Made by a program: the position numbers and the translations under genes. 64,000 nucleotides of DNA from a virus, in IMG/VR virus record IMGVR_UViG_3300045007_000107, positions 1 through 64,000 of that record, one strand, 5' to 3'. The stretch's first letter is position 1. Every line of letters starts with the position of its first letter. This document shows positions 21,889 to 39,242 of the stretch, one piece after another. The notes beneath the pieces were generated by a model, which saw only the letters and a program-made list of their open reading frames with translations, did no database searches and was not told the origin of the DNA.

Positions 21889-22120
21889 AAGGCGAATAGT
21901 AAATGGAAAACTGGCGCTTACAGTTGGAATAGTAAATGGATTAGGCCCTGGGTAGGTGGGGTAAGAGCCTCGCGTAGACCCTGTACGTGTACAACTGGAA
22001 TGGGTGTTCTGTTCCGGTGTATGGGAGTCCTTGGAGTAAGACTGACGTAATCAGCTTGTGCCGTAGCAGGGTTTACGATTTACTCGATAACGGGCCGTGC
22101 GGGCCTAGCGGAGCTTTGCA

Positions 22121-22378
22121 ATGTCTGTTACCATCACTCGTGCGAACGTCAACGAACTGCTCGACAAGCGTGTCATCGAAGTGGCGATGCGGTCGGGCAA
22201 ATGGTGGGAGATCCGGCGTAACGGGAAAACCAAAACGTGGAAGAAGGATGCCTCGCGCATCTGCATCCCGTTCAAGTACGGGTTCCGGGGGTGTTCTCAG
22301 ATCACGGAGACGGACTTCCGCGAGGACGGGACGCTCGACCCGACGCAGTACAGGGTCCGAGAGAGCTACAAGGGCTAG
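22121..22378 (+). CDS. early hypothetical protein
   Basis: GUGCG leader hairpin + CGGAG RBS; followed by terminator-like stem 22383-22413. Confidence 0.8.
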   Translation: MSVTITRANVNELLDKRVIEVAMRSGKWWEIRRNGKTKTWKKDASRICIPFKYGFRGCSQITETDFREDGTLDPTQYRVRESYKG

Positions 22379-22442
22379 GACTAAGGGGCGGGCCAGTAAC
22401 CCGCCCTTCTTCTTGCAGACGGCTGCACGCGGGGTTACGATA

Positions 22443-22691
22443 ATGGCAGCAGACCATAGCACGCACACGGTGCTGTTCGAAGACGGCGGTAAGATCGTAT
22501 TCATTCCGCGCGGTAAGTACGTTCACATGGAAGTGACGGACAAGACCGGCAAAACCATCCTCGTACGTGCAAGTGAGAAAGAGGCGCGCAGATGCGTAAC
22601 CCCGATCAAAAAGACAGCGTTCGCGGTGGAAACGAACAAGCACCGATTGGCAAGGGAGTCAATCTCGCCAATCTCCGACCGATCGAGTTAG
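22443..22691 (+). CDS. hypothetical protein
   Basis: 3' part of ORF 21987..22691. Confidence 0.55.
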   Translation: MAADHSTHTVLFEDGGKIVFIPRGKYVHMEVTDKTGKTILVRASEKEARRCVTPIKKTAFAVETNKHRLARESISPISDRSS

Positions 22692-23179
22692 GGGTCGCGG
22701 TCAACCTCTGCCTGTTCACGATGAAGGACCTCCCCACCTTCACGCAGAGCGAGGGCGGCAAAAAGATCCAGGGACTTTACGCGGGTCTCGCGCGCGAACT
22801 GTTGCAAGGCTATACCAACCCGGCCTCAGCCCGCCTTGTGCGTGACCGGATCGCGACGGAGTGCAAGCATCTGCTCACCCTCGTCTCGCCCGAGGAGTAC
22901 AACCCCACCCAGCGGTTCAACATCACCGCCAAGTTCTTCGATGATGCGGCCAAGGCCCTCGGCTGGCACGACAGCTTCTCGCGGTCTGTGCGCGCGGTGC
23001 TATTGGTTAATCGCACCTTTACGCAGGAGCAAAAATCGGTCTTGCAACTTGCAGGGTCGCCCAATATAAACGACCTAGCCATCGACGCGGGCGCGGTAAC
23101 GCTCATGGTTGGGGCCAAGGCACGCGGGTTGTTTTCGTCGGTTGACAAGCTCCCCGTTTTGTCTCAGGCTTCTCGTTAG
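22592..23179 (+). CDS. hypothetical protein (start uncertain)
   Basis: ORF with phage-like codon bias. Confidence 0.65.
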   Translation: MRNPDQKDSVRGGNEQAPIGKGVNLANLRPIELGVAVNLCLFTMKDLPTFTQSEGGKKIQGLYAGLARELLQGYTNPASARLVRDRIATECKHLLTLVSPEEYNPTQRFNITAKFFDDAAKALGWHDSFSRSVRAVLLVNRTFTQEQKSVLQLAGSPNINDLAIDAGAVTLMVGAKARGLFSSVDKLPVLSQASR

Positions 23180-23737
23180 GAATTCGGTTTGCGGTGGCTG
23201 GTTTGCTCCGATTACCAGTCATCGCCGCCGGGGGTAGCGAAGGTGGGGACCGCACTCCCTTCCCGTCGCCAAGACCCCCGGCGCAACTATCCCTAGGTTG
23301 GTCGGAGCCTAGGGTGACCCGGCCGGCATCCCGCCGGTCAACGCGAGGGTAGTCGTCAATGAACATTCTGCGGAATGTTAATCCACCGTTCTTCTGACGA
23401 TCAGGGCCTATGCGGCGGCCCCTAGGGGTTGCCTAGATACTGGATAGGAAGAGGCGACAGTCGTTAGACGACGGCCCATCTCATAGCTAGAGAGGCGCAC
23501 TAGCCCGCCTACCGGGAACGGCACGAGGCATTGACGGTGATACAACCCGAGCCTATGACTGCCCCCGACAATAGGATAGCTTCTGGCCCGGAGGAAGTTA
23601 CGTCTGTATGTGCTGAACCTTAGCAGAGTTATCCTTTGCGGTTCGTCGTTGAGCGGTTCGGCTAACACCCTGCGGAGAGTGGGCTCCGGCAAGACTGTAA
23701 CTTCCTCCCCCGCCGGCCTCTAGGCCGGTTTTATTTT
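23180..23737 (+). ncRNA. candidate large structured non-coding RNA (~550 nt)
   Basis: No + strand ORF; TTGACA-N17-CAGGCT at 23142; many G-U-containing stems, c(UGCG)g tetraloop, 12-bp long-range helix; terminator at 3' end. Confidence 0.75.
23713..23737 (+). terminator. intrinsic terminator
   Basis: CCGGCC-TCTA-GGCCGG-TTTTATTTT. Confidence 0.85.
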
Positions 23738-23740
23738 GCC

Positions 23741-23768
23741 TTGCATTACAAAGAAACTCGTATATAAT
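23741..23768 (+). promoter_or_regulatory. sigma70-type promoter with the palindromic site over its predicted start
   Basis: TTGCAT-N16-TATAAT; TGCAGCCGTCTGCA at 23776. Confidence 0.7.
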
Positions 23769-23802
23769 ACCCTCTTGCAGCCGTCTGCACGGGGTACCTC
23801 TA

Positions 23803-23874
23803 ATGAAGAATTTTGTCGCCTTTGTCTTCTGGTCTATGATCGCGGTTACTGCGGTAATACTGGTGTTCTCATGA
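23803..23874 (+). CDS. 23-aa membrane peptide
   Basis: MKNFVAFVFWSMIAVTAVILVFS; ATGA overlap with next gene. Confidence 0.5.
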   Translation: MKNFVAFVFWSMIAVTAVILVFS

Positions 23875-24401
23875 GACGACTGATACGCACACCCGGCCAG
23901 CGCCTCCCGCCTGACAAGCGGGCGGAACGCAAGGCAAGCATCCTAGGAGATCGCCCCACCGAACCCCCGCAGTACATGGCGGATGTTCGGTGGGGCGAAG
24001 CCGTTGCGGAGGTCGGTCAGGTCAACACCGGCTGCATGTCCAACGGCCTGCATTATGTAGTGCTCAACGATGCGTTGCTTCGCAAGTTCCACCTGTCGAA
24101 GCCCTCGCAGTGCCAACTCATGCTGATGGTACAAGGCGCCGGTCTACACGCCTGCGAGAACACGCAAGAGATGGTTCACCGGTTCACGGTGTTCAACGAC
24201 AGTCGGCACCACCAGCGCGACGGCTACCTCTGGTACCCCGACATGATCGACATGCCGGCGGCCATCGGCGGCGAGATAGGCAGTCGCTATACCGCCGTCG
24301 CATCCGTAAGGTATGAACGATGCTCGTTCACTCCATGGGGCGAGCGGGTATATTTCCAGCCACGCCACGGCGTCATCTATCTAGGGTATGCCTACCGATG
24401 A
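23871..24401 (+). CDS. RRIG-tag-like protein
   Basis: MRRLIRTPG start. Confidence 0.7.
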   Translation: MRRLIRTPGQRLPPDKRAERKASILGDRPTEPPQYMADVRWGEAVAEVGQVNTGCMSNGLHYVVLNDALLRKFHLSKPSQCQLMLMVQGAGLHACENTQEMVHRFTVFNDSRHHQRDGYLWYPDMIDMPAAIGGEIGSRYTAVASVRYERCSFTPWGERVYFQPRHGVIYLGYAYR

Positions 24402-24829
24402 GACGGATGATCAAGCGCATAGGTACGGAAGCGGTTAGCTACGACACGGCGGTCTATGAGTGCCGTGTCTGTGGCGACACCCGCACGATGCTTGGCCTGT
24501 CAAAGGACGCGGTGCATCTCAAGACGCCCCGCTGCGACGGCCTGCCTATGGAGCAAGTCGCGTACAACGCGGACAAGCCGGCCGAACGAGTTCCGCTAGA
24601 GTATAAGCAGAGGCTCGCCTCGGGTACACGGCTCTGGTGCTTGATCCACCGCGAAAAGGGCGACCCGACGAAGCATGATCACGCCGGGCGTAGCCCCAAG
24701 CTCGCTGACAAGGGGTACAAGTATAAGCCTAGCCCCCACGTCGCGGGTAACGAGGACTTCGAGGATCTCTACCTGATGTATGTGGCGGCCAACCCCGGCA
24801 CCGAGCAAGAAGACAAGGAAGCCCCATGA
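24398..24829 (+). CDS. RRIG-tag protein with zinc ribbon
   Basis: MRRMIKRIG; YECRVCG. Confidence 0.7.
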   Translation: MRRMIKRIGTEAVSYDTAVYECRVCGDTRTMLGLSKDAVHLKTPRCDGLPMEQVAYNADKPAERVPLEYKQRLASGTRLWCLIHREKGDPTKHDHAGRSPKLADKGYKYKPSPHVAGNEDFEDLYLMYVAANPGTEQEDKEAP

Positions 24830-25161
24830 GCCAGATCGACATCAAGACCCTCGCCGAGTTCAAGCGGTTCCTCGCCCTCCCCGGCGCGACAGTGCAGATC
24901 GTGCAGCACGACAGTATGCTGCCTATCAATAGGGACGATCCCGAGGCTGTCGCCAAGCGCGAGGCGTTCTTGAAACCTCGTACCGTGGCAAAGGTGCGGA
25001 GCAACACTGTGCAGTTCATCAACGGGTCGTGGCTCCGCCACAAGGCGGCCAGCCATTACCGGTTTCACGGCAACCGGGTGACGATCGATCTCAAGGAAGA
25101 TGGGTCGTTTAGCAAGGTCATGGTCTATGAATGCAGCATCATGGAAGGCGCAAATAACTAG
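24826..25161 (+). CDS. hypothetical protein
   Basis: RBS AAGGA, ATGA overlap. Confidence 0.75.
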   Translation: MSQIDIKTLAEFKRFLALPGATVQIVQHDSMLPINRDDPEAVAKREAFLKPRTVAKVRSNTVQFINGSWLRHKAASHYRFHGNRVTIDLKEDGSFSKVMVYECSIMEGANN

Positions 25162-25223
25162 CCTTGCAGACGGCTGCACGCTATCGTCGCTCTCGGACCC
25201 GTGCGGGGTCCGGGAGCTTTTTA

Positions 25224-25526
25224 ATGGCTAAACGCACCGTCTTTGACGACATCGCCCGGCTCAAGCTCAAGCATGGGCGGGATCGTTCACTAGCCCGGTC
25301 CTTCCCCGACCTGTCCTGCAAGCCCGGTGCACCTTCGCTAAGCGACGGTTTCGCCCCCATCACGGATAACCGGGCTAAAACCTTAGCCGACCGGTTCCGC
25401 AACGAGGAAAAGCGGGTAGCGGATGAGATCGCGGCCAAAGCCTCGCGCATTCGTCCTCACTACAACAAGGGTGCGTATCAGTACGCCACCGATGACGTAA
25501 GCCCTATCGGGATCTATAGGAAATAA
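25224..25526 (+). CDS. early hypothetical protein
   Basis: GUGCG leader hairpin; C-terminal YNKGAYQY. Confidence 0.75.
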   Translation: MAKRTVFDDIARLKLKHGRDRSLARSFPDLSCKPGAPSLSDGFAPITDNRAKTLADRFRNEEKRVADEIAAKASRIRPHYNKGAYQYATDDVSPIGIYRK

Positions 25527-25697
25527 CATGAATACGCTTAGACTTTACGGCCCGTTCACCATCGACCACGGCCCCGTGGACCATGATCGAGGCGACTATG
25601 AGTCCGGCACGTACGTTGTGGTATACTATCACGAGGACTCGGGCGCTGGTACGCGAAACGAGTCCGTTCGCATGTGGTGGTTCCCGTAGGAGAGAAC

Positions 25698-25952
25698 ATG
25701 GCTAAGCAAGACAGAGTACCGCTCGCTCCCGTTATCGACAGCTACGAGGCGCGGGATCGTAAGGGCAAACCCGTTGTCATCGGCTCCACTGGTTACGCGG
25801 ATAACGCGACTGATATTAGGTTCGTGGTCAGCGCGATCATCTTCCGCACCAGCGGAGTCCTGTTCGAGTGCAACTACTTCCACCAGGGCATCCACTACAC
25901 GCTTAACGTTGAGTCGTGGCGCTTCACTGGCAACGGTTACGAACGCGACTAG
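25698..25952 (+). CDS. hypothetical protein
   Basis: RBS AGGAGA. Confidence 0.7.
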   Translation: MAKQDRVPLAPVIDSYEARDRKGKPVVIGSTGYADNATDIRFVVSAIIFRTSGVLFECNYFHQGIHYTLNVESWRFTGNGYERD

Positions 25953-26045
25953 CCTTGCAGACGGATGCAATATGCTTGCGTCGGGGGAGACCCCGGCGCA
26001 TTCTGCGTCTACGGCCCGTGCGGGGTCGCAACCGGAGCAACAGTT

Positions 26046-26393
26046 ATGGGTCTCATCGCGTACATCATGAAACACAAGGGTACGGATTGCTCCAACGGGG
26101 GCCTGTCTTCGCGACACGATGAAGTGACCATCGTGAACGCCGATGGGCCGTTCGATCCGACCGAGGACCGCCCGGCTGTCATTCTCGTGGCCCGTGCGCC
26201 TGTCGGTACGCGCCAGATCCTCACCGCCTATCCTGCGGTGCATCAGGGTGGCAAGTGGGTCAAAGACCCGCGCTGGCTCATGATGGGAGGCACCTACATC
26301 TCGTGCTCGGACAGCCGCTTCGGTGAGTTGTGCAACCGGCTTGGCGTGCCGTTCTATGGCGCCGTTGCCCTCCACGACCGGTACGAGGGTTGA
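26046..26393 (+). CDS. early hypothetical protein
   Basis: GUGCG leader hairpin; DCSNGGLSS...MMGG..DSRF..LHDRYE. Confidence 0.8.
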   Translation: MGLIAYIMKHKGTDCSNGGLSSRHDEVTIVNADGPFDPTEDRPAVILVARAPVGTRQILTAYPAVHQGGKWVKDPRWLMMGGTYISCSDSRFGELCNRLGVPFYGAVALHDRYEG

Positions 26394-26396
26394 TCC

Positions 26397-26705
26397 ATGG
26401 CACGACGGGTAACGACCAAAGAGATCGAAGCTGTCTTCGGTCTTGTCTGCCGCGAGATGGGGTGGTCTCGCGAAGTTCTCCGCCCGGCTACTGCGGGCGG
26501 CCACGATTGGATTGTTGGGTCGGTGCTTATCGACAACAATCCCACCTATGGCGGTCGTCAAGTCGAGATGGTCACCAGCGACACGGGCTCCACCCGCGCG
26601 CTCACCCCCTACCGCCTCAAGCCGGCTGAATTCGAGATATGGTGCCGAGGCGTCCTCTTAGCGAAGGAATACTCCCGTGGTAAAGACAACTCGCGAGCAG
26701 CGTGA
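26397..26705 (+). CDS. hypothetical protein
   Basis: Operonic ORF. Confidence 0.7.
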   Translation: MARRVTTKEIEAVFGLVCREMGWSREVLRPATAGGHDWIVGSVLIDNNPTYGGRQVEMVTSDTGSTRALTPYRLKPAEFEIWCRGVLLAKEYSRGKDNSRAA

Positions 26706-26862
26706 AGCGATCAAACGTGCCTATGATTGCGCCAGGGGCGACATGACCTATCGCGAGTTCCGCAAGAAGGTCACGCCTACCTTCGGGTGCGATGGCGCGG
26801 TCACTGTCCCCTGGTGCGGCTTTTGGCTCTGTATCGAGCGCGACGGCTATACCCATTCCTGA
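26677..26862 (+). CDS. small hypothetical protein
   Basis: RBS AAGGA; ends WLCIERDGYTHS; terminator-like stem 26871-26898. Confidence 0.7.
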   Translation: MVKTTREQREAIKRAYDCARGDMTYREFRKKVTPTFGCDGAVTVPWCGFWLCIERDGYTHS

Positions 26863-26916
26863 TAGAGTTCGCCGGGGGCACTTCGTCCCCGGCATTTTCG
26901 CGAGAAAGGTAATGCG

Positions 26917-27372
26917 ATGATCACCGACGACCAGAAACAGGCCATGCTCGGCCACATGCTCAAACTCAACAGTCCAGACCGTGACGAGGCCAACGCGGCT
27001 GTCGATGGTATTCGTGAGATCCTCGATGAAATCGATTTGCGGCAACCGCCCATCGCCAAGCAGAAGGCCGATGCACGAGCGCAGCGTACGGTCTGGATCG
27101 ATAGCTGCGGAGAGAAGTACGCGGCCTACGACGACGAGGGTAAGGTTATACCCGATACCCTTGCAGCCAGTGTGGGGGACGTTGACCGTATAGTCAGCGT
27201 TATGTCGATCCCTGATGGTCACTTGGAGCACGTCCAAGCTATCGCTATAATGGCTCCCGCCGGTTGGGCGGGCCTGCGTATGAAAGGTCGTCCTCAGACA
27301 GATACTTCCGCCGTGCAGCCGTCTGCAAGACCCAAGCGTAGAATGCGCGCGGGTAACAACGAGGAAAGCTAA
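26917..27372 (+). CDS. hypothetical protein
   Basis: RBS GAAAGG. Confidence 0.7.
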   Translation: MITDDQKQAMLGHMLKLNSPDRDEANAAVDGIREILDEIDLRQPPIAKQKADARAQRTVWIDSCGEKYAAYDDEGKVIPDTLAASVGDVDRIVSVMSIPDGHLEHVQAIAIMAPAGWAGLRMKGRPQTDTSAVQPSARPKRRMRAGNNEES

Positions 27373-27698
27373 TGATCGCCTCCGAAATGCAATCTATCCT
27401 GGCGGTGCTCTACGAGTATAAGGGCACCTGTCTGACTATCGCCGCGTTACTTCTCGCACGGTACTACATCAAGTGGTCATAGCCCAATGAGCGGCGTCGA
27501 AAATCTAGCGCGGTGGTACACCAGGGCCGATGACACGGACAAGCGTGAGGGCGCCCTGGCCTATCCCCGATATCACCGCGTGATGCAGGGCCTCGCCGAC
27601 TTGTGGAAGACAATGGTCGATCCCGAGAGCATTAAACCTTACCCGTTGATAGCTAAACGTGATACAGTTGAGGCAGCACCTCAATAAGGCACGCCCAC

Positions 27699-28241
27699 AT
27701 GCCCCGATTTCTTCGAAGAATTGGACGCCTCTACAGCAAAGAAGCGTCGGCGCAAGAGCCCGACCCACAGACCCAACGCATGATCGCTGACCCGTCTGCG
27801 CCGGGGTGTGATACGTGTCGGTTCATGTCGAGCATGACCCACCGTTGCCTCAATCGCAACAGCCCCTACTATAGGCGACCCGTAGGGGTGGACGATGCTA
27901 TGACGTGCCGCTTCCACTTGAGCGGAGACCGTGATCGGCGCACACAGCAGTTCGTGGATCAGTTTGCAGAGTCCTTGGTCGCGCAGACCCCCGCATTTCC
28001 CGCCGGTGAGACGCCCGTCGATCACTTACGCAGTATGCGAGCGATGGACGCGCTGTTGACGCCGGGCGCGGTACAGGGTGGTCATAATGGCTGTTTCTCT
28101 TGTGCCTACAACACGCGGCGATCCGAAGGTGTCGGCTACCAGGGATGTCACTATCCCGGCAGTCAAATGGACCTCGATCCACTGGACGACGGGCTGCGCT
28201 GTCCCGAATGGACACGTGCGCCCGACGCTGAACCTAGGTAG
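27699..28241 (+). CDS. RRIG-tag protein, two 4-Cys domains
   Basis: MPRFLRRIG; CDTC..C..C and CFSC..C..CPEW. Confidence 0.75.
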   Translation: MPRFLRRIGRLYSKEASAQEPDPQTQRMIADPSAPGCDTCRFMSSMTHRCLNRNSPYYRRPVGVDDAMTCRFHLSGDRDRRTQQFVDQFAESLVAQTPAFPAGETPVDHLRSMRAMDALLTPGAVQGGHNGCFSCAYNTRRSEGVGYQGCHYPGSQMDLDPLDDGLRCPEWTRAPDAEPR

Positions 28242-28324
28242 CGGAAAATAGCTTGTGCGCGTGACGGCTTCTGCTACCTTGCAACCGGGCGACCGTGCGG
28301 CGCCCTATACGGAGCAAAGGGACA

Positions 28325-29011
28325 ATGGCTAAGGATCACATCATCGTTATGGTCGAGAGCCTGCCGGCTCGCCCGCAATTCGAGGCGGCGAAGAACGCCC
28401 CCAAGGGTCGGGTTTTCGGCAGCTACACCCACACTCTGCGCGAGGACGGTGAGCACGACGAGATCGACAACCCCGAAGTCTGTACGATGCCGGAACTCTG
28501 TGCGCGTCTGCTCAACGAGGGCGGCAAGGGTATTATTTTCGTGCCCTATACCCACCATACCGAGGGTGATGTTCACTTCTGCATCGTCGTAGCGGGCATC
28601 ACGCGCGAGCAGGAGGCGCAAGCCCGTATCGAGGAAGAGATCCACCGCCTCACCCGCAAGAGTATGCTGATCGGCGGCCTCTTCGGCGCCTTATTCGGCA
28701 GCGACCGAGCCGAGGACGGCGACGGTACCCTTTCCGGCCGTGCGGCCATCAAGAAACACACCGAGGCGCTGACGCCGGGGAGCAAGATCGTAGTCATGCC
28801 GGCCAACTATCGCGGCAACGATCCCGAGCAACGTGTAGAAGTTCCGTACGCGACCTACAACCGCCTCATGGAACTCGAAATGATCGACCCCTGCCCGGTT
28901 TGCACCCTGCGCGAGGATCGGCTTGTCTGCCATACCGAAGACGACTATACTATGGAGGATGTCCTGCGCATCGTCCGCGAGCCGATCCCGAACGCCTCGC
29001 CGAAGCTGTAG
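28325..29011 (+). CDS. early hypothetical protein
   Basis: Promoter TTGTGC-N16-TACCTT, leader hairpin, RBS. Confidence 0.8.
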   Translation: MAKDHIIVMVESLPARPQFEAAKNAPKGRVFGSYTHTLREDGEHDEIDNPEVCTMPELCARLLNEGGKGIIFVPYTHHTEGDVHFCIVVAGITREQEAQARIEEEIHRLTRKSMLIGGLFGALFGSDRAEDGDGTLSGRAAIKKHTEALTPGSKIVVMPANYRGNDPEQRVEVPYATYNRLMELEMIDPCPVCTLREDRLVCHTEDDYTMEDVLRIVREPIPNASPKL

Positions 29012-29036
29012 TACGTTTTCCTCCCTAGACTATTAA

Positions 29037-29077
29037 GCCCCGCTTGCAGCCGACTGCAATGCGGGGCATTCTTTTTT
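29037..29077 (+). terminator. intrinsic terminator whose upper stem is the palindromic site
   Basis: GCCCCGC-TTGCAG-CCGA-CTGCAA-T-GCGGGGC-ATTCTTTTTT. Confidence 0.7.
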
Positions 29078-29107
29078 CGGGACGTGCGGTCCCACGGAGC
29101 AACGACC

Positions 29108-29383
29108 ATGAAACAGATCCTTTCCCGCAAGCAGCGTCGCGCCATTGCCTGGGAGAACATGAGCGAAACGCACTACAATCGCCACTGTCAGGGCGCAGTG
29201 CGCCGTATCACCAACGCGGACTTCCACTGGTACTTGGCGATGGCGAACAGCTACCTGTTCACCTACCGCGATATCGCCTCTCGGCTCGACATGACGTACG
29301 CCGAGGCCAAGGTTCATGCGCGTAATGTTATCGGGGCTGCACGCGCGGCACGTCTCGATGTCGGTTGCGTCATCCCCGGTTAA
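29108..29383 (+). CDS. early hypothetical protein
   Basis: GUGCG leader hairpin + CGGAG. Confidence 0.75.
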   Translation: MKQILSRKQRRAIAWENMSETHYNRHCQGAVRRITNADFHWYLAMANSYLFTYRDIASRLDMTYAEAKVHARNVIGAARAARLDVGCVIPG

Positions 29384-29395
29384 GGAGCTACCACA

Positions 29396-29644: not shown

Positions 29645-29710
29645 CGCTTGCAGCCGTCTGCACGTCGCGTATTATCGATCTTGCGCCGTGCGGGCGCATC
29701 GGAGCCAGCC

Positions 29711-30046
29711 ATGTACACCACTGAGCAGCGCAAGAGCCTTCTTCGCCTTTTCCGTACCTTTCGTAACCAGTACCGTGATGACGCCCTCGCCGAGCGCCAG
29801 CGCGTCGCCCAAGCCATCACCGAGCGCGCCACCAACGGCGAGGTGCTGACTGTGAGCGGCGGCACGGACTGCGATGGTTACCGCCACGGCCCCCACTTCG
29901 GCTACGTACAGGCGAGCGTAGTAGCATTCGAGTACGCCCGCAGCAAAGCCTATGAGTGGGCGGACGGCCCCCACTACTTCCGTCTCGCGACCCCGCGCGA
30001 GATCGAAGAGTACAACGAGCGCTGCGACGAGATGGAGGTCGCGTAA
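29711..30046 (+). CDS. early hypothetical protein
   Basis: GUGCG leader hairpin + CGGAG. Confidence 0.8.
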   Translation: MYTTEQRKSLLRLFRTFRNQYRDDALAERQRVAQAITERATNGEVLTVSGGTDCDGYRHGPHFGYVQASVVAFEYARSKAYEWADGPHYFRLATPREIEEYNERCDEMEVA

Positions 30047-30496: not shown

Positions 30497-30583
30497 GAAA
30501 TTCTTTGCAGCCATCTGCAAGCAACTGTTGCCGGGGGAGTGATCCTCCGGTATACTTGTTTTAGGACCTATGGATCGGAGCCT

Positions 30584-31370: not shown

Positions 31371-32143
31371 TGCCGAGACTGATCAGACGCATAGGGCACG
31401 CTCCCGCACTCCCACCCCCGCCCGAGAATGTTTGGCCGGGGTTTCGCATTCTGTCGGGGTACAAAGTCTATTGCGGCGACAGGGACTTGCGCGAGGTCTA
31501 TGTTCTGCACGGGATCAACTGTGACGCCGCAGGATCACCCCACGAGGATGCGGACACCTTGCGGGAGCAGTTTTTCTCGTCGCCTTATGACGCGCGAACA
31601 GGACAAATGCAGGTAGGTTACGGAGAGATCGATAACTGTTTCAGTGGCCGGTATCCCGAACGCCTGCCCGATAAGGTGCGCGAGGCGTGCTACGATATTC
31701 TTCATGATGCGCAGGAATACGTCACTTGTCAGATCCTATTTCCGCCCATGACCGGCGACTTGCAGCCGTCTGCACGTGTTGATGTACGCAGACCTATCGA
31801 TCCTCCCGCACTAGGTCGTATCGAGGATCACCCCGATGTGAGCGCCCTGCCGCCGAACACGGTGATTTGCGAGGGTTGCGGTCGGCTGAGCTATGAGCAC
31901 GTACGACACCCGCGCTGCTGTCCTGATAACAGTTTCCATCGCCTCGATACACAGCGGGGTCGCATTGCTGTGCGTCAGTTTCGTCGCCACCAACAGATAC
32001 GTAGTGACGTATGCGTGGCGTGCGATGCCCTAGAGACAAACGACTTTGGGCGGAGTTGTCGCTTCGGGATGAGTAGTCCGCGCAACCGCACCTCGTGTAC
32101 CATGCACACGTCGTTAGCTTATCGCCGAGAGAGGAGGAGCTAG
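31370..32143 (+). CDS. RRIG-tag protein, C-terminal 4-Cys domain
   Basis: MPRLIRRIG; CVAC..C..CTMH. Confidence 0.75.
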   Translation: MPRLIRRIGHAPALPPPPENVWPGFRILSGYKVYCGDRDLREVYVLHGINCDAAGSPHEDADTLREQFFSSPYDARTGQMQVGYGEIDNCFSGRYPERLPDKVREACYDILHDAQEYVTCQILFPPMTGDLQPSARVDVRRPIDPPALGRIEDHPDVSALPPNTVICEGCGRLSYEHVRHPRCCPDNSFHRLDTQRGRIAVRQFRRHQQIRSDVCVACDALETNDFGRSCRFGMSSPRNRTSCTMHTSLAYRRERRS

Positions 32144-32898
32144 TGCCAGCCCGCGTTCTTCGCAAGATTGGTATACCGCTACCGCCTCCGGTTAAGGAAC
32201 CCCTGCCGCGCATACCGGACAGCGATAGCTCACGCCCACAGTATGGTTTGTGCGGTAGCTGCCGGTATAAAGGTAGTATGGAGCCGGACCGGGGCGGTGA
32301 ATGGTTATGTGGTGTCTCGCGCCTGTATGTCAGCAATAGTCATTTCATTGATGGTGGCGAGTGTTCTCACTACGAGGATGTATCCGTCCCTGGAACGATT
32401 ACCATAGACGCTAGTCAGATAGTCGTAGGGTCGATAATGGCAGACCAGATAGTTGCGGGCTCTATCGGTGTCGATAGAATAATGGTCGCTGATAATGTGG
32501 CCGAGCAATTAATACAAGATGTGCGAGAGGCGCAGTTAGTTGGCGCGCTTACCTCCGAACAGATAGAGCAGATAAACAGCCATACCCTAGTAGGTGGGCT
32601 CAGGGTCACGAACGAACCAGTACCTATCGCGCCACGCATCACGGCCGCACATAGGCTCACAGGAGTGCGTAGAATAAGGGACAGGGCGCGCGTGTTGTTT
32701 CTGGTCTATATGGAGTTGGACATACAGCAACAGGGTATGGCGACCGAGGTGATGCCTGTTGAGGTCATGTACGACCATCACGGAAACCTCAATGATCAGC
32801 GCCTCTATTATGTGCCGCAAAGCTTAGGTGTTGGCGAGGTATATCGCATTACCCGAGCTACAAGAGAGCGACTTGACGGGGAGTTTGTCGAGCTATGA
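32143..32898 (+). CDS. RRIG-tag protein, 4-Cys domain + tail-fibre-like repeats
   Basis: GTG after AGGAGGAG; PARVLRKIG; CGSC..C..CSHY; IDASQIVVGSIMADQIVAGSI. Confidence 0.75.
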   Translation: MPARVLRKIGIPLPPPVKEPLPRIPDSDSSRPQYGLCGSCRYKGSMEPDRGGEWLCGVSRLYVSNSHFIDGGECSHYEDVSVPGTITIDASQIVVGSIMADQIVAGSIGVDRIMVADNVAEQLIQDVREAQLVGALTSEQIEQINSHTLVGGLRVTNEPVPIAPRITAAHRLTGVRRIRDRARVLFLVYMELDIQQQGMATEVMPVEVMYDHHGNLNDQRLYYVPQSLGVGEVYRITRATRERLDGEFVEL

Positions 32899-33137
32899 GA
32901 AGATCTTTACGCAAGATCGGCCCGGCCGAGGAAGCACCTGTCAAGGTTACGCCTTTGATGCGGGCTAACGCTACTATGAAGGTGAGGCCCAACCGGGCAA
33001 GCCTCTGTAAGATGTGTACGCTCCGCGACCGTCTCGCGTACAACGCGCGGGGTCTTATCGTGTGCTCGTGGTCTATGATCGAAACACCCGAGGACACGCC
33101 AATCACAAAGTGCCCCTACTATGAGTGCGTGATATGA
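32895..33137 (+). CDS. RRIG-tag protein, one 4-Cys domain
   Basis: MRRSLRKIG; CKMC..C..CPYY. Confidence 0.75.
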   Translation: MRRSLRKIGPAEEAPVKVTPLMRANATMKVRPNRASLCKMCTLRDRLAYNARGLIVCSWSMIETPEDTPITKCPYYECVI

Positions 33138-33637
33138 AGCGCCAATTACGCCGCATAGGCTTGCAGCCATCTGCACCCGCGCCTCCACCCCCACCAGAAC
33201 CTAGCGATGCGCGATCCTGCGATACGTGCCGGTTCAACAGGAAGGCAAGCATTTACTCTACGCCGCCGCATGAGCTGATTATTCATTGCTCGGGCAGGAT
33301 CGGGGTCGGGTATACTACCCTACGAACCAACTGCCACGGATGGGAGGCAACCGTACCTCACCACGTCGGATCTCTCTGCAATAGGTGCGTACACGGTACA
33401 GTACACTACGATCATCCTGTTCATGGGATAGCGGTTAATTGTACGAGGTTTACCACGCAACGGATCGCATACGCCACTGAATGTCGTGATTATCGCGATG
33501 AAGAGATGCAGGCACACTTTCGCCGAGCCGCTGAGGAAGAGGCTATGTACGCGGCTACGCTACCCGATCCGCCTGCCCCTTGGTACGCGCGCTTGCGGGA
33601 TCGTCTGATGTGGTGGTGGGGAGGTTACAATGCATAG
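33134..33637 (+). CDS. RRIG-tag protein, two 4-Cys domains
   Basis: MKRQLRRIG; CDTC..CHGW; CNRC..CRDY. Confidence 0.75.
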   Translation: MKRQLRRIGLQPSAPAPPPPPEPSDARSCDTCRFNRKASIYSTPPHELIIHCSGRIGVGYTTLRTNCHGWEATVPHHVGSLCNRCVHGTVHYDHPVHGIAVNCTRFTTQRIAYATECRDYRDEEMQAHFRRAAEEEAMYAATLPDPPAPWYARLRDRLMWWWGGYNA

Positions 33638-34007
33638 GCTCTTACGCAGGATCGGGCGTATACCGCCCACCATCGTCACCCGAGAGCAGACTGCTCACAT
33701 CACCCGCGCAGGCCGTGTCCACGAGACTATCGTTCACCTCTCGCCGGCCTCCCTAGGGGACGAGATCAATGCAGGCGAGCGCGTTATCTCTATAACCGAG
33801 GAAAGCCGCTATCAGGAGAGGGAAATGGACGGGGAACGTATCCTCTATCCTGTAGCGCCCACGGGTACCCGCAAGGTCGAGACTATACGCATCGAGTCCA
33901 ATTGGGATGGTAGCAGCCGTATCCGTAAGCGCACCTACCGAGAATTCATGGACCAAAGCGGTGACGTGCAACGCATGATTATCGAACAAAGCTGGGAGTA
34001 TCAGTGA
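33630..34007 (+). CDS. RRIG-tag protein without Cys domain
   Basis: MHRLLRRIG; RBS GGAGG. Confidence 0.75.
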   Translation: MHRLLRRIGRIPPTIVTREQTAHITRAGRVHETIVHLSPASLGDEINAGERVISITEESRYQEREMDGERILYPVAPTGTRKVETIRIESNWDGSSRIRKRTYREFMDQSGDVQRMIIEQSWEYQ

Positions 34008-34297
34008 TGCTACGTCGCATCAAAGGCATCGGTAGACCGAGACCTGTGCAGCCGTCTGCAACCGAGCAACCCTCCGTGGAGCCCCCACGGAGGGTTGAAC
34101 TACTTAAAGCGGTACCTGTAGGGCGGAAGTGCCATAGTTGCGTCTACCGTACGGAACTTCTGCCCCTGTACCACCGGGACACGAGAACCAACGACCCGCC
34201 GCAGGTAAAGGGCTATACCTGTCCCATCGTCTCGCGGCACTACCCTCTGGACGATGGTCCGCGCATCTGCAACCGACATGAGCCCACGGGGATCTAA
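34004..34297 (+). CDS. RRIG-tag protein, one 4-Cys domain
   Basis: MLRRIKGIG; CHSC..C..CNRH. Confidence 0.75.
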   Translation: MMLRRIKGIGRPRPVQPSATEQPSVEPPRRVELLKAVPVGRKCHSCVYRTELLPLYHRDTRTNDPPQVKGYTCPIVSRHYPLDDGPRICNRHEPTGI

Positions 34298-34299
34298 TC

Positions 34300-34893
34300 A
34301 TGCCTCGCAAGATCAGACGCATTGGGCGTGAGACTCCACCGCGACCGGCACCCGCCCCTGAGCCTCCGCGCGGGAACTACAAGCGCAACTCTAACACAGG
34401 GCACTCATGTAACTACTGTATCTACCGGGAGCATCACGTCTATAACAAGTGGAGCCCCGACTTCCCTGAGCGCGCGTGGTGCCCGGTCGCTAACACAACC
34501 TACGTGACCGACAGCAGCAGGGATCAGGTTACGGTGTGCGGCACCTTCCGCGCGGGCGATCACGTTGTGGTAGCAGTGGAACCTACCATCGATACGCTCC
34601 TTGAGATGGTGGGCGCCACAAGTCAGGAGGAAGCGCGGCGTCGTGGTCGGCATACTATTGCTGGTACGGTAACCGGACGTGCGAGTTCCACGCGCGGTCT
34701 CACTGATTTCCCCCTAGAAGTCATGCCCGAGGACTCCATCTGCCGTACCTGTCGCCATCGTGATCATATACGCGCTAGGCTTCGTCGGTCGGAAGCGGGT
34801 ACTGACGTGCGTTCGTGGGCGTGTAACCACGCATTGCGCCAGCGTATATATGGTGCCGGGGTTCGGACATGCCAGTCATGGGAACAGGACTAA
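34300..34893 (+). CDS. RRIG-tag protein, two 4-Cys domains
   Basis: MPRKIRRIG; CNYC..CGTF; CRTC..CQSW. Confidence 0.75.
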   Translation: MPRKIRRIGRETPPRPAPAPEPPRGNYKRNSNTGHSCNYCIYREHHVYNKWSPDFPERAWCPVANTTYVTDSSRDQVTVCGTFRAGDHVVVAVEPTIDTLLEMVGATSQEEARRRGRHTIAGTVTGRASSTRGLTDFPLEVMPEDSICRTCRHRDHIRARLRRSEAGTDVRSWACNHALRQRIYGAGVRTCQSWEQD

Positions 34894-35321
34894 TGGCTAA
34901 GGAACCAACCCCCAAAGCTCTCGCCCGCCGTCGTGAGCGCGAGCGTATGACGGAGGAACAGAAAGAGCGGGAGCGCGAACGTAAACGCGCTTCGGCCAAG
35001 CGGCATCGGGAAAGCGAGAATGCTCGACAGCGTAAATATATCGCCGCGCATCCCGAACTAAGAGCCTACTATCGGCGGCGCTACAGCCTGCGCAAGATGA
35101 AACCCCACAACGCGAAAAAGCGTACAATAGAGATCATGGCCGAACTACAGGCCAAGGCACCCAGGCATCACGGTCGCGAAGAGATCATCGCGGCGGCGAC
35201 AATGTTCGTACTAGAGGGCGATACCGTCGAAGTGGCGCTCGCCAAAGCCTCGAAACAGCACAACGCCGAGACACGTATCCAGCGGTCGAGCACCAACTTC
35301 GAAGAAGCGTATTGGCTATGA
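34893..35321 (+). CDS. Arg/Glu-rich basic protein
   Basis: Coupled start; RERER repeats. Confidence 0.7.
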   Translation: MAKEPTPKALARRRERERMTEEQKERERERKRASAKRHRESENARQRKYIAAHPELRAYYRRRYSLRKMKPHNAKKRTIEIMAELQAKAPRHHGREEIIAAATMFVLEGDTVEVALAKASKQHNAETRIQRSSTNFEEAYWL

Positions 35322-35836
35322 AGCGCATTATCCGAAACATAGGCAGCATCGCGCCCTTGCAGCCGTCTGCAATCCCCGAGTTTACCGCCACGATTACCGG
35401 GCGGCCTCCGTTCGATGAGCACGGCAATCCGCACGTGCGGGGCGTCTGCGCGCGTTGCACCTCTCGCAGACGCTTTACCTTCGACGCCCAGCGACAGGAG
35501 TATACCTGCCCTCGGATAGATCGCGTGATTACACCTGGCGGCGGGCGTACCGAATGTGCATCCTATGACCTCGACATGCCCGAGCATGATCGCCGCCGTA
35601 CAATCCAGCAGTCATTCAACGGTCCTGCCGCTCGTCCTCCGAACCTAGACATCGTGGGTCGAACCTCCGACTGTCATACCTGTAATGCGGCGTGGAGTAT
35701 CGACCGCGTCTCTCCCTCTCACTGGCGGTGTCCTCGTATTGCTCGCACTCTCGCCAGCGCGGTCGGTATCGTTAACTGTTCCGGCTATGAGCATGATCTC
35801 GAACTCTACCGTACTGCCCCATGGGAGCCTGACTGA
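35318..35836 (+). CDS. RRIG-tag protein, two 4-Cys domains
   Basis: MKRIIRNIG; CARC..CPRI..CASY; CHTC..CPRI..CSGY. Confidence 0.75.
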   Translation: MKRIIRNIGSIAPLQPSAIPEFTATITGRPPFDEHGNPHVRGVCARCTSRRRFTFDAQRQEYTCPRIDRVITPGGGRTECASYDLDMPEHDRRRTIQQSFNGPAARPPNLDIVGRTSDCHTCNAAWSIDRVSPSHWRCPRIARTLASAVGIVNCSGYEHDLELYRTAPWEPD

Positions 35837-36096
35837 TGCTTACTCTCGATACTGTTCGCGCTAACATCTTCGCAGGAGATCCGTTAGCTAAATCACCAGA
35901 TGAGGTGACCGATACAGGTACAGCAATCGAAATTGCCGGTATCGATGACGGTACAGAGTTCCGTGAAGACCTACGTTTCGTTTCCGAGGGCGATGGCGTA
36001 GAGCTACTTGTGCGCGATCCCGGTACGGTTTCGTGGAACTCGCACGGCGTCTTTCGTGATTGGCGCGAGCTTCATATATGGATTTACGAACTATGA
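35836..36096 (+). CDS. hypothetical protein
   Basis: Coupled start TGATG. Confidence 0.65.
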   Translation: MLTLDTVRANIFAGDPLAKSPDEVTDTGTAIEIAGIDDGTEFREDLRFVSEGDGVELLVRDPGTVSWNSHGVFRDWRELHIWIYEL

Positions 36097-36184
36097 ACCA
36101 GCGGGCTCGTCTTACCCTGGCCGTTATGCTAATCGGTACGGCGGTTCTCATCACTGCTTGCATTCGCGGGATATGGTCGCTGAT

Positions 36185-36886
36185 ATGAAACGCTTGATCA
36201 GAGGGATCGGCCGCCAAGAGCTACGTACCGAGGCAACCACTCAGCGCATCTTGGATAAGTGCGACAGCATCATCGGCGTATTACAAGAAGGTATTGCTGC
36301 AAGCCCCAGCCCGATAGCATCTCAACTTCATGCGGACAGTCTGTGTCGGCGGTGCCCCCACCAGAACCGGATTAGGCAGAACCCGAACGTTCCTCGTAAC
36401 CCGGCCGAGGTCTACTGTCCTGCGCACGACTACTACTTCAATGCTCATGTGCCGGTCGAGTCCTGCGCGCGGTATCATCGCGATGTAATACAGCCTAACC
36501 CTCCCTGGGAGCGCCCAGCGCGGTCTATCACCGAAGTGGGCCTACCGCCTATCCCCGAGGGTAGTATCTGCGAGTCGTGCCCTCACCGTGCTACAAGACA
36601 TTATGCGCGCGGCGAGAGTTATGTCCATTGTAATTCGCCCGAGCAACTCCACACTGTAGCGATAGGTGCGACCATATACTCGTGTACCAGCTACCCTCCC
36701 GAACGTGTCCAACGCGCGGTCGTATACGATACACCTCGTGAAAGTCAATGCAGGACATGCTTACACGGGACTCGCCTAGTCCGCTCTAGTGTCAATCCTG
36801 AACGCGGTGCTGTATGTCGTCAGGCAGATCGTCGGTTCACTACAGACGCTGTAATACAACAGTGTCACGATTATAGGGCTTTCTGA
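36185..36886 (+). CDS. RRIG-tag protein, three 4-Cys domains
   Basis: MKRLIRGIG; CRRC, CESC, CRTC units each ending CxxY. Confidence 0.75.
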   Translation: MKRLIRGIGRQELRTEATTQRILDKCDSIIGVLQEGIAASPSPIASQLHADSLCRRCPHQNRIRQNPNVPRNPAEVYCPAHDYYFNAHVPVESCARYHRDVIQPNPPWERPARSITEVGLPPIPEGSICESCPHRATRHYARGESYVHCNSPEQLHTVAIGATIYSCTSYPPERVQRAVVYDTPRESQCRTCLHGTRLVRSSVNPERGAVCRQADRRFTTDAVIQQCHDYRAF

Positions 36887-36887
36887 T

Positions 36888-37532
36888 ATGCGTCGGCTCA
36901 TTCGCGGGATCGGTATTACACCTGTATTACAAACGGTTGCAGAGCCGTCACGCTATCAGGACGCGGTCGTATCCCGTACCCATGAAGAAAACATCTGTAG
37001 GCACTGCCAGCACTCCGACTGCCTGAGCTACGCGTCCGGAGAGCCGGGCCAACTTGCGGACGTTCGATGCGCCCATGCCGGTCATAGCTATCCAGGCGAC
37101 GTCGGTCTGTCGGACTGTATCGACTACCAGCGTATTACAGGTCCAAGCGTAACGTCGAACTCCCAGCGCGCGGTCGTTGATCTATTACCCCAAGACAGTC
37201 TATGTCGTCAGTGTAGCTTCTCTCCCCGTCTATACGCCCACTCCGAGGAGGACGGTATACCGGGAACAGTTACCTGTCGGTATACGGGTTACACCACAGA
37301 CATCAACGTACCGGTGCGCGAGTGCTCGGCGTATTACACGTACTCGACACCACATTCCCAACGCGCGGTCGTTGATACCTTACACCCTAATACCCTATGT
37401 AGACAGTGCAGGCACGGAACGTCTATCCGACCATACAATAGATCACCCGAGTGGTATGCCTGCCCTGTAGCCGACCGCTATTTCAGACCCTACAACTTCA
37501 TCCTCTCATGCCGGTCTCTGGTACGTCTCTAG
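36888..37532 (+). CDS. RRIG-tag protein, three 4-Cys domains
   Basis: MRRLIRGIG; CRHC, CRQC, CRQC units with SQRAVVD linkers. Confidence 0.75.
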   Translation: MRRLIRGIGITPVLQTVAEPSRYQDAVVSRTHEENICRHCQHSDCLSYASGEPGQLADVRCAHAGHSYPGDVGLSDCIDYQRITGPSVTSNSQRAVVDLLPQDSLCRQCSFSPRLYAHSEEDGIPGTVTCRYTGYTTDINVPVRECSAYYTYSTPHSQRAVVDTLHPNTLCRQCRHGTSIRPYNRSPEWYACPVADRYFRPYNFILSCRSLVRL

Positions 37533-37927
37533 GGAACTCTCCCGCGTATCCAGCAGCCGTCTGCAAGCTCCTGTGTAATACGTATCTCGGATGTAATACG
37601 GAAAACCCTCGATCCCTCAACATCCCTAAACCCCTGGCGCGGCGTTTTCCTGAAAAAACTACCAGCGCGGGGTCTTTAATTTAATGCGTAATGAATAAGA
37701 ACACATAGAAGCATCAGTAGAACCCCTAGTAAACACTATAGGCCCTTCCCGTAGTTCTCAACAACTCTCAACACATCCACACACAAGCAAGTTAGTAATG
37801 GCTGGCGAAATTTCCGAATAGTAAATGGGGAGGCTCCCTGATGGAGTAGGAATAGTAAAAGATCAACGTATTCAAGGAGTTGTAGGAATAGTAAAAGAGC
37901 ATGGTCCCGTAGAAGGAGGAGGAAATC

Positions 37928-37996
37928 ATGGTGATCTTGGGCCTCGTGGTGGTGTTGGTCGTGTGCGTCCTGATCCTGGCGACCGGCCTGGACTAG
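37928..37996 (+). CDS. 22-aa membrane peptide
   Basis: RBS AGGAGGAGG; MVILGLVVVLVVCVLILATGLD. Confidence 0.5.
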   Translation: MVILGLVVVLVVCVLILATGLD

Positions 37997-38065
37997 AGAT
38001 TGGACCCGGAGTAGTCTGTATAGACTATGTGGTATAGAAGTACCACATAAAGGAGATAGACGAGT

Positions 38066-38260
38066 ATGTCGAGGATCAATGGAGTAGGTAGAAGTCGTGG
38101 ATATCACCCGATAGAAGGAGGTGGGTTTGTCTACGTCCATATGTACAAAAAGCAATGGTGGTGGAGGGCTACTGACGAGAACAAGACCCCCGTGGGGCAG
38201 CGTATGGGACCGTTCACTGATAGTGACGCCGCCGCTGCCGACGCCAATAGGAACGTGTAA
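38066..38260 (+). CDS. small hypothetical protein
   Basis: RBS AAGGAG; WWW..GPF....A. Confidence 0.65.
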   Translation: MSRINGVGRSRGYHPIEGGGFVYVHMYKKQWWWRATDENKTPVGQRMGPFTDSDAAAADANRNV

Positions 38261-38331
38261 TACACGCTTGCATCCGTCTGCACGATCCGGTACGTATTAC
38301 ATCGGGTCGTGCGGACCCACGGAGATATGTT

Positions 38332-38499
38332 ATGTTCAAAGTACAGACGAAAGAGTATTCGCTCGGGCGGCGTTGGCAGGACCTTAAGTCCTTTCACCGC
38401 AATCGCTTCGTGACCGAAGAAGATGCATGGGCCTACGTCGAGAGCCTGGATCAGGACGGTGTTCGTGACACGGGGAATTTTCGGGTAGTGCCCGCGTAA
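38332..38499 (+). CDS. early small protein (55 aa, below ORF-track cutoff)
   Basis: Promoter, GUGCG hairpin, CGGAG, MFKVQTKEY...VVPA. Confidence 0.7.
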   Translation: MFKVQTKEYSLGRRWQDLKSFHRNRFVTEEDAWAYVESLDQDGVRDTGNFRVVPA

Positions 38500-38567
38500 C
38501 CCCTTGCAGCCATCTGCACGCTCGCGTATTACAGCTACGGGGCGTGCGGCCCCACGGAGCAAAGACC

Positions 38568-38876
38568 ATGCGTCTCGCGATTGGTGAAAAGATCATTAAG
38601 TCCTCGCGACCCAACCGCCACTTCGTGGCCCTGATCGAGGGCGGCGAGGGGGACAACCGTTACTACTACGTGCATACGAGTATGGCGGTCGTCCATGACG
38701 AGCCCATGGAGGACGACTACGACTGCGAGGATATCGTGGAGGCCGCCCGCGTTTACGAGCGCGAGGTCAAGGACCTGTCCAGTACTGGCAACCCACAGGC
38801 CCAGGCTGAATATGACGATGCACATGGTACCGTCAACGGTTACGCGCCGTGGCAGTACTCGGCCAGCGAATACTGA
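38568..38876 (+). CDS. early acidic protein
   Basis: Promoter, GUGCG hairpin, CGGAG. Confidence 0.8.
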   Translation: MRLAIGEKIIKSSRPNRHFVALIEGGEGDNRYYYVHTSMAVVHDEPMEDDYDCEDIVEAARVYEREVKDLSSTGNPQAQAEYDDAHGTVNGYAPWQYSASEY

Positions 38877-38892
38877 GGGGGAGTGTAATACA

Positions 38893-39168
38893 ATGTCTGG
38901 CAAGCCTTCCGCTCTCGGCTATAAGTTCCTGCGCGAGAACTTCCCCGAGTTCCCCCGCAGCCACTACGCTCGTACGCGGGCGTTCACTGGTAAGGACAAT
39001 GGCCCGATCCCCAAGGATCAGCAGGGTGTGACCACCATGGGCGGGATCATCGTCCGCCTGTTCAAGGCTGATGGAGGCCGGCATCGCATCCACGCCGAGT
39101 GCCCCAAGTGCAGGAAGGACATCCCTGCGGGCCGTCTTCACCAGCATGTAGGGGTGTGCGAAGGCTAA
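38893..39168 (+). CDS. small zinc-finger protein
   Basis: CPKC...H.H..C; RBS GGGGAG. Confidence 0.75.
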   Translation: MSGKPSALGYKFLRENFPEFPRSHYARTRAFTGKDNGPIPKDQQGVTTMGGIIVRLFKADGGRHRIHAECPKCRKDIPAGRLHQHVGVCEG

Positions 39169-39242
39169 CCCTTGCAGCCGTCTGCACACGTGCTACCTTA
39201 GCCCCTGCCCCGTGCGGGGTTTCTTTTTGCGGAGCTACTGTT

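Follow-up and report, generated by a model that had tools for sequence, protein, structure and literature searches.

Covarying leader hairpins with an invariant GUGCG loop at the predicted message starts of orphan genes in a siphovirus genome

The DNA analyzed here is the first 64 kb (hereafter, the window) of the 101,701-bp IMG/VR virus record IMGVR_UViG_3300045007_000107, and its subject is a family of nine RNA hairpins, all on the + strand and all intergenic, which lie within 17 kb (22.1-39.2 kb) and each of which carries C-GUGCG-G, a GUGCG loop closed by a C-G pair. The genes behind the hairpins are small orphans without a Pfam family, and only two of them have a significant PHROG match, of unknown function. 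The phage encodes DnaB, a family A DNA polymerase (PolA), RecA, a tape measure protein of 1720 aa, and a gpJ-like tail protein of 3547 aa, and this gene content identifies it as a siphovirus. Among cultured phages, those closest to it by PolA, at ~39% identity, are Agrobacterium phage JP1, Rhodobacter phage RcTiptonus, and Rhizobium phage L338C. The gene order of the whole record was the same, end to end, as that of JP1 (PQ741606, complete, 96.9 kb), running from DnaB-PolA through the orphan genes, GT-ParB-terminase, and the tail genes to an AAA ATPase; because of this synteny, the record is probably nearly complete despite a CheckV estimate of 79%. No match to the T7-type RNA polymerase profile PF00940 was found in the phage, a profile to which the control genomes were equally silent, and no RNA polymerase is annotated in the complete, syntenic JP1, which would leave transcription to the host polymerase. 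The hairpin region is probably an early one. In lake-water metagenomes the phage was present as an essentially clonal population, and the mapping of four lake-water DNA runs revealed no variants in or near the hairpins.

The hairpins and the signals around them, including the Shine-Dalgarno (SD) sequences, were as follows.

h1, 22092..22106, + strand: leader hairpin GGGCC-GUGCG-GGCCU with a G.U pair at the base; -35 TTGTGC at 22056-22061; -10 TTTACT, 7 nt to the stem; SD at 22110-22113; ATG at 22121.
h2, 25189..25217, + strand: terminator-like hairpin, a 12-bp stem around GUGCG and then UUUUU.
h3, 26012..26028, + strand: leader hairpin CGGCCC-GUGCG-GGGUCG with an internal G.U pair; -35 TTGCGT at 25976-25981; 17 nt; CATTCT; 7 nt to the stem; SD at 26034-26037; ATG at 26046.
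h4, 28287..28306, + strand: leader hairpin GGGCG(AC)C-GUGCG-GCGCCC with an AC bulge, or with an A bulge and a GUGC tetraloop; -35 TTGTGC at 28253-28258; 16 nt; TACCTT; 6 nt to the stem; SD at 28311-28314; ATG at 28325 (228 aa).
h5, 29079..29093, + strand: leader hairpin GGGAC-GUGCG-GUCCC; palindrome/-35 TTGCAG at 29044-29049; 17 nt; CATTCT; 6 nt to the stem; SD at 29096-29099; ATG at 29108.
h6, 29682..29698, + strand: leader hairpin UGCGCC-GUGCG-GGCGCA; -35 TTGCAG at 29648-29653; 16 nt; TATTAT; 6 nt to the stem; SD at 29701-29704; ATG at 29711.
h7, 38304..38318, + strand: leader hairpin GGGUC-GUGCG-GACCC; -35 TTGCAT at 38268-38273; 17 nt; TACGTA, 7 nt to the stem (or TATTAC, 3 nt); SD at 38321-38324; ATG at 38332.
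h8, 38539..38553, + strand: leader hairpin GGGGC-GUGCG-GCCCC; -35 TTGCAG at 38504-38509; 17 nt; TATTAC; 6 nt to the stem; SD at 38556-38559; ATG at 38568.
h9, 39209..39219, + strand: weak, terminator-like hairpin CCC-GUGCG-GGG (3-4 bp; or GCCCC-GUGC-GGGGU) and then a U-run; -35 TTGCAG at 39172-39177; 16 nt; TACCTT; 9 nt to the stem; SD at 39231-39234, 11 nt past the stem; ATG at 39243.

The heptamer CGTGCGG by itself was not enriched in the window (24 matches versus 20.8 expected). Strict Watson-Crick stems of at least 5 bp around GTGCG were observed five times versus 0.43 expected, with a simulated maximum of three in 100 Markov-1 sequences. GTGCG was the commonest pentaloop in the genome, and C-gtgcg-G was the top class in an unbiased loop tally of SD-adjacent hairpins. 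In an alignment anchored on the loop, the C-GTGCG-G and GGAG columns were invariant while the stems differed: 83% of the stem cells were paired, four of the six pairs had changed on both sides, and the second pair occurred as C-G, A-U, U-A, or G-C. The covariation score was reached by none of 500 shuffles, and the pairing collapsed when the 3' partner was slid. A first-pass annotation of this DNA had described these nine hairpins and the compensatory variation of their stems around a constant loop, and both descriptions were confirmed.

The structure is RNA in the sense transcript and is under selection for pairing. RNA rather than DNA structure is indicated by the G.U wobbles and by the folding energies, both of which favor the sense strand. 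Three G.U cells, and no A.C cell, were present in the aligned stems, at h1 and h3, and all the hairpins folded 1-6 kcal/mol better in the sense than in the antisense strand (sense range -7.9 to -25.1 kcal/mol; for example, -8.3 versus -6.4 kcal/mol for h1 and -9.7 versus -3.9 kcal/mol for h3). The minimum-free-energy folds of the predicted leaders contained the exact hairpin with the 5-nt loop in five of the nine cases (h2, h5, h6, h7, and h8), and in the fold of the h4 leader its register was shifted, leaving a GUGC tetraloop. The SD was unpaired in most of the predicted leader folds that contained the hairpin.

The covariance model search that the first-pass annotation had proposed as a check recovered exactly the nine hairpins from which the model was built (23.7-38.8 bits), with no further match elsewhere in the 101.7-kb genome or among 1.1 Mb of DNA from relatives. 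Rfam had no match at the hairpins at E values up to 1 over 20-42 kb, the scan of IMG/VR with the consensus of hairpin and SD (GGGNCGTGCGGNCCCACGGAG) returned no match, the near-identity DNA search of the hairpin region against GenBank phages was equally negative, and a literature search for a GUGCG loop found none. The hairpin family is real, statistically solid, and not catalogued before.

The hairpins were embedded in a recurrent arrangement of promoter-like and SD sequences. In eight of the nine units, a TTG-type -35-like hexamer (TTGCAG, TTGCAT, TTGTGC, or TTGCGT) ended 28-31 nt before the stem, a distance made up of a 16-17 nt spacer, a -10-like hexamer, and 6-7 nt (9 nt for h9). The -10-like hexamers (TATTAT, TATTAC, CATTCT, TACCTT, TTTACT, and TACGTA) were clean in seven units, and the distance from their end to the stem was 6-7 nt in seven of nine, so that the six cases counted earlier were if anything too few. 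The strict combination of -35, -10, and 6-7 nt occurred at five of the nine stems compared with 0.06% of genome positions, a pattern that was partly defined post hoc. From this spacing, the stem is predicted to begin at or within 1 nt of +1, mostly with G. GGAG began 2-5 nt past the stem in seven units, and ATG followed 6-10 nt after GGAG.

The first-pass annotation had placed the hairpins at the 5' ends of transcripts with a GGAG ribosome-binding site behind them. Both points were supported, the hairpin lying at the predicted +1 of a host-type promoter and immediately before the SD. Two of the nine, h2 (25189) and h9 (39209), resemble terminators more than clean +1 hairpins; the SD of h9 is remote, and that of h2 (25213-25216, in GGGAG) sits within the 3' arm of the 12-bp stem. 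The h2 hairpin (-25.1 kcal/mol, with the ATG at 25224) has no clean -10 because the palindrome/TTGCAG at 25164 is just 19 nt upstream. Translation of the gene at 25224 would require the terminator-like hairpin to open.

In six of the nine units the -35 is the left arm of a 15-nt palindrome, TTGCAG-N4-CTGCA; in the other three it is not, and palindrome and hairpin are therefore separable. Promoter-like sites without a hairpin exist as well, for example at 47791, so that the hairpin marks a subset of promoters. Leader hairpins with other loops were found after promoter-like sites at 96133, at 98908, and upstream of 40751.

Among the genes behind the hairpins, that of h1 encodes an 85-aa basic orphan and that of h3 a 115-aa protein of phrog_6045. 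The gene behind h5 (29108-29383) encodes a 91-aa basic protein with an arginine-rich N-terminus (MKQILSRKQRRAIAW); its C-terminal half gave low-confidence helix-turn-helix, sigma region 4, and Mor-like leads, with no Pfam or PHROG match. This protein is a candidate for a regulator that acts at the palindrome or at the hairpins. Upstream of the same gene, window positions 29004-29084 gave a sub-threshold Rfam match to suhB/mmgR, an alphaproteobacterial small RNA (27.7 bits versus a gathering threshold of 41, E 0.044), which stops inside the 5' half of h5 and is probably due to chance.

PolA homologues at 50-60% identity exist, three of them in IMG/VR (G001, G002, and G003), and the genomes of these three were read whole. 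In IMG/VR a single-protein PolA query found nothing, and the relatives came from a PolA alignment. The PolA identity to this phage was 58-59% for G001 and G002 and 50% for G003. The covariance model detected no GUGCG hairpin in the three genomes, nor any match in the cultured RcTiptonus and L338C. G001 and G002 had six SD-proximal hairpins in common, with an invariant C-AUGCAAC-G loop and covarying stems, in which three of the five pairs had changed on both sides and whose covariation score was reached by none of 500 shuffles. In the GUGCG and AUGCAAC families alike, the closing pair was always C-G and the second pair took all four Watson-Crick forms. The hairpin-associated proteins of G001 and G002 were only 43-68% identical, and the identity in the intergenic sequences was therefore not inherited by default. 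One hairpin gene of G001 has an orthologue in G002 with a leader hairpin at the same place and another loop.

The third relative (G003, IMGVR_UViG_3300044530_001128) contained eight units at 52.6-59.5 kb with the layout -10, 6-7 nt, GC stem, hexaloop, 1-8 nt, (A)GGAGC, and ATG. Its stems included CCGGG/CCCGG, GCGGG/CCCGC, CGGGG/CCCCG, and TGCCGGT/ACCGGTG, and its hexaloops varied (CCAGCA three times, AACGTC, ACCGTC, AACGGT, ACCAAT, and GCTTTT). At 57840-57900 and 59390-59440 of this genome, a terminator hairpin of 12 bp (ATACCCCGTATG...CATACGGGGTAT) extends over the -10 TATTAT of the promoter that comes next, a leader hairpin lies behind that promoter, and this cassette of terminator, promoter, hairpin, and SD repeats between orphan genes. 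Loop tallies of JP1, RcTiptonus, L338C, and two more distant genomes (G004 and G005) contained no repeated-loop family. Judged from sequence, the layout of promoter, predicted +1 hairpin, and SD is a trait of the clade.

We propose, at about an even chance of being right, that the leader hairpin at the 5' end stabilizes and insulates the mRNA and that its loop is read by a lineage-specific RNA-binding factor. Host sigma70-type RNA polymerase would transcribe from the phage promoters in this orphan-gene, probably early, region, and each unit would act as a compact cassette of a -35 (often the palindrome), a -10, a hairpin at about +1, a 2-5 nt spacer, GGAG, and ATG. To judge by its position, the stem-loop, with 0-1 unpaired 5' nucleotides, would shield the triphosphate end from 5'-end-dependent decay of the RppH/RNase E type and would also keep the adjoining SD free of upstream pairing. 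Emory, Bouvet and Belasco reportedly found in 1992 that 5'-terminal stem-loops with fewer than about four unpaired nucleotides stabilize mRNAs of E. coli, and by analogy the layout seen across the clade fits a generic cis role of this kind, blocking decay from the 5' end and insulating the SD. The closing C-G pair and the GUGCG loop, whose invariance suggests as much, would be a sequence-specific dock for one trans-acting factor, encoded by the phage or by the host. A factor bound at this site, 14-20 nt upstream of the AUG, could control the access of ribosomes or the decay of the message across the whole set and might thus serve as a coordinate switch of translation or stability. The identity of the loop would be specific to the lineage, GUGCG here and AUGCAAC in two related phages.

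The case for sequence-specific recognition is that the unpaired loop bases stay while their surroundings diverge: seven loop and closing bases were identical in nine copies, and the stems, -10 boxes, and spacers were not. A factor that reads the loop by its sequence would account for this most economically. The first-pass annotation had suggested a protein-recognized mark on early messages, and this suggestion gained from the relatives, in which the layout recurs with another invariant loop (C-AUGCAAC-G); the two loops resemble lineage-specific pairs of operator and protein. Several observations weigh against the proposal. All nine copies come from a single clonal genome, as paralogues and not as orthologues, and the GUGCG loop was present in no other genome examined, so that its invariance is without orthologue confirmation. 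The variable loops in the same layout in G003 mean that the hairpin can serve there without a fixed loop. The hairpin of h2 and h9, with poor promoter geometry and a U-run, shows that the same structure also occurs in terminator-like settings. Finally, the -35 TTGCAG matches only three of the six positions of TTGACA, and a generic promoter scan misses these sites.

The variable loops of G003, the other-loop leader hairpins at 96133, 98908, and upstream of 40751, and the G002 orthologue with its different loop at the same place would all be expected if the hairpin were purely structural, that is, a 5' stabilizer, SD insulator, or aid to promoter escape without any trans-acting reader, its loop being kept constant by some demand in cis, for instance from the initial transcribed sequence (+6 to +12) or from the folding kinetics of the GUGCG loop. 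We consider this explanation unlikely, since unpaired bases should then drift faster than stems, yet seven bases are identical in nine copies, and the AUGCAAC loop was kept across two phages whose hairpin-associated proteins have diverged as described; to our knowledge, nearest-neighbor models also give GUGCG no special stability bonus. The 5-6 bp stem with a pentaloop, the lineage-specific loops as in lambda, P22, and phi21, and the resemblance of the start of the 91-aa protein to an arginine-rich motif would suit instead a boxB-like nut, where an arginine-rich protein of the N kind, once on the nascent hairpin, lets the polymerase pass terminators after each early promoter. This was the likeness drawn in the first-pass annotation, and in the strict sense it did not survive. 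GUGCG ends in G, so that no GNRA-like boxB fold is possible and no GNRA register fits in any of the nine; a boxA-like word (CGCUCUUA-like) was absent within 60 nt of eight of the nine hairpins, and if transcription starts at the stem there is no RNA upstream to hold one. Terminators to be overcome downstream are few, with five terminator-like sites on the + strand at 21.5-41 kb, two of which are h2 and h9 themselves, and the arginine-rich candidate gave the low-confidence leads mentioned above. We know of no precedent for nine individual nut sites that each lie 2-5 nt from an SD, and we regard antitermination as quite improbable.

An element acting at the DNA level could be a PeSL-like cassette for the recombinational shuffling of orphan genes, a site bound by a protein, or a promoter hairpin extruded from the DNA as in N4. 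Orphan genes in a hyperplastic region flanked by hairpins are the setting of PeSL (PMC2839356), and repeated cassettes of 30-60 bp are substrates of homologous recombination. The strand-specific G.U wobbles and the folding energies nevertheless speak for RNA, a constant center with variable arms is the opposite of a dimeric DNA-binding site, and the stem-loop of PeSL is a terminator upstream of its promoter. A 5-bp stem would not be expected to form a cruciform without help. The phage yielded no virion or T7-type RNA polymerase gene, its giant open reading frames being the tape measure and gpJ-like genes, and on these grounds a DNA-level role appears very improbable. Least credible is that the hairpins are intrinsic terminators or attenuators of the upstream genes: h2, with 12 bp and UUUUU, and h9, with its U-run, were indeed called terminator-like, but the other seven have no U-tract, are followed by ACGGAGC, and lie downstream of promoter hexamers rather than between a stop codon and a promoter. 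Two further ideas were dropped. A pseudoknot partner (CGCAC-like) downstream of each hairpin, sought by eye, was inconsistent, and mimicry of an anticodon loop fits AUGCAAC (U33, GCA, A37) and not GUGCG, and so fails as a common explanation.

Returning to a hairpin that both stabilizes the message and presents its loop to a reader, we suggest more tentatively, and with the balance leaning against it, that the loop and a phage protein form a co-evolving pair of RNA operator and regulator, which would place the orphan cassettes under post-transcriptional control as one regulon, with a switch of specificity between GUGCG and AUGCAAC in sister phages. If so, the N-boxB specificity families would have a counterpart at the level of translation or decay, in a clade of ~100-kb siphoviruses that is widespread and whose cultured members infect alphaproteobacteria (Agrobacterium, Rhizobium, and Rhodobacter), and the pair would explain how dozens of horizontally shuffled orphan genes can be switched jointly. 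A loop that is a protein-read tag would also mean that the clade provides a compact natural set of mutually orthogonal pairs of RNA operator and regulator. In the minimal case, without a reader, the unit of promoter, +1 hairpin, and SD would be a ready-made, context-insulated expression cassette, and protection of the 5' end would be built into the early transcripts of the clade.

The palindrome that supplies many of the -35 hexamers is a repeat in its own right. TTGCAG-N4-CTGCA(A) was present in ~65 copies in the window (183-62380), both intergenic and intragenic, and metagenome contigs ended at palindrome sites. Examined in the window, the whole genome, G001-G004, JP1, RcTiptonus, and L338C, it proved to be a trait of the clade with a lineage-specific center: TGCAGGAACCTGCA occurred 42 times in G001, GTAC, GTTC, and GCAC centers were found in G002, and among the cultured phages CAAACGTTTGCA occurred 47 times in JP1, CAATCGATTGCA 56 times in RcTiptonus, and CAACCTGTTGCA 17 times in L338C. 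The RcTiptonus genome paper, as searched, makes no mention of it. Scans of IMG/VR and JGI metagenomes with the 15-mer and 18-mer gave single chance matches and no relative. Downstream of the last hairpin, after a terminator at 39572-39587, positions 39600-40030 of the window hold an array of GGAGTAAC(A/G)TGTTGT-like units that resembles iterons or a packaging site.

Among known systems, the boxB/N pairs of the lambda family are like the present hairpins in having a 5-bp stem with a pentaloop, in lying on early transcripts (probably so here), and in carrying specificity (as proposed here) in loops that differ from phage to phage. The hairpins described here differ in that the loop is not GNRA-like, boxA is missing, the hairpin lies at the predicted +1 right next to the SD, and its copies number nine instead of two; a homologue of N was not found, and there are no clear terminators to overcome. 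They fail as members of boxB/nut, though the proposed principle, lineage-specific recognition through the loop, is shared. Promoter hairpins of N4 have a stem of 5-7 bp and a loop of 3 nt, compared with a loop of 5 nt here, and the N4 start site lies downstream of the hairpin, an arrangement that would here remove or truncate the SD 2-5 nt past the stem. Together with the failure to detect a virion polymerase gene, this excludes the hairpins from the N4-type promoters, and the analogy with N4 made in the first-pass annotation was given up.

The 5'-terminal stabilizers of the E. coli ompA type also have a hairpin at the extreme 5' end (predicted here), with 0-1 unpaired nucleotides and then the SD, and the stable sense-RNA stem typical of that class was found throughout (-7.9 to -25.1 kcal/mol). 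These stabilizers need no particular loop, however, whereas seven bases are invariant over nine units here. The GC stem and U-tract of intrinsic terminators were found in h2 and h9 only; the other seven hairpins are followed by (A)CGGAG.

Repeats of other phages share the position or the surroundings of the hairpins. The SAS/ESAS of cluster K mycobacteriophages are repeats in one orientation just upstream of the start codons of a subset of genes, which include the SD, are preceded by an inverted repeat, and have no known function (PMC3203893). The present hairpins are likewise start-associated and restricted to a subset of genes. The arms of ESAS are 17 bp long and conserved in sequence around a variable spacer (PMC3203893), whereas here the arms are variable, 3-12 bp long, and the center is fixed; hosts and phage families are unrelated. 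The PeSL of T4-type phages combine a sigma70-like promoter with a G/C-rich stem-loop and are repeated between orphan genes in hyperplastic regions (PMC2839356, PMC4122927). Cassettes of promoter and G/C stem-loop flanking orphan genes were found here too, but in PeSL the stem-loop precedes the promoter and stops transcription that arrives from upstream, whereas here it lies downstream of the -10 and inside the new transcript, so that membership in PeSL fails.

The operators of the leviviruses MS2, Q-beta, and PP7 are, like the present hairpins, small hairpins near the ribosome-binding site, and their loop bases are read by a lineage-specific protein that represses translation, a kind of reader that is proposed here. 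Each levivirus genome has a single such operator, with the start codon inside the hairpin, whereas the GUGCG hairpins lie upstream of the SD in nine copies. In concept, the family looks like such known phage RNA operators, as a shared regulatory tag at the start of the message.

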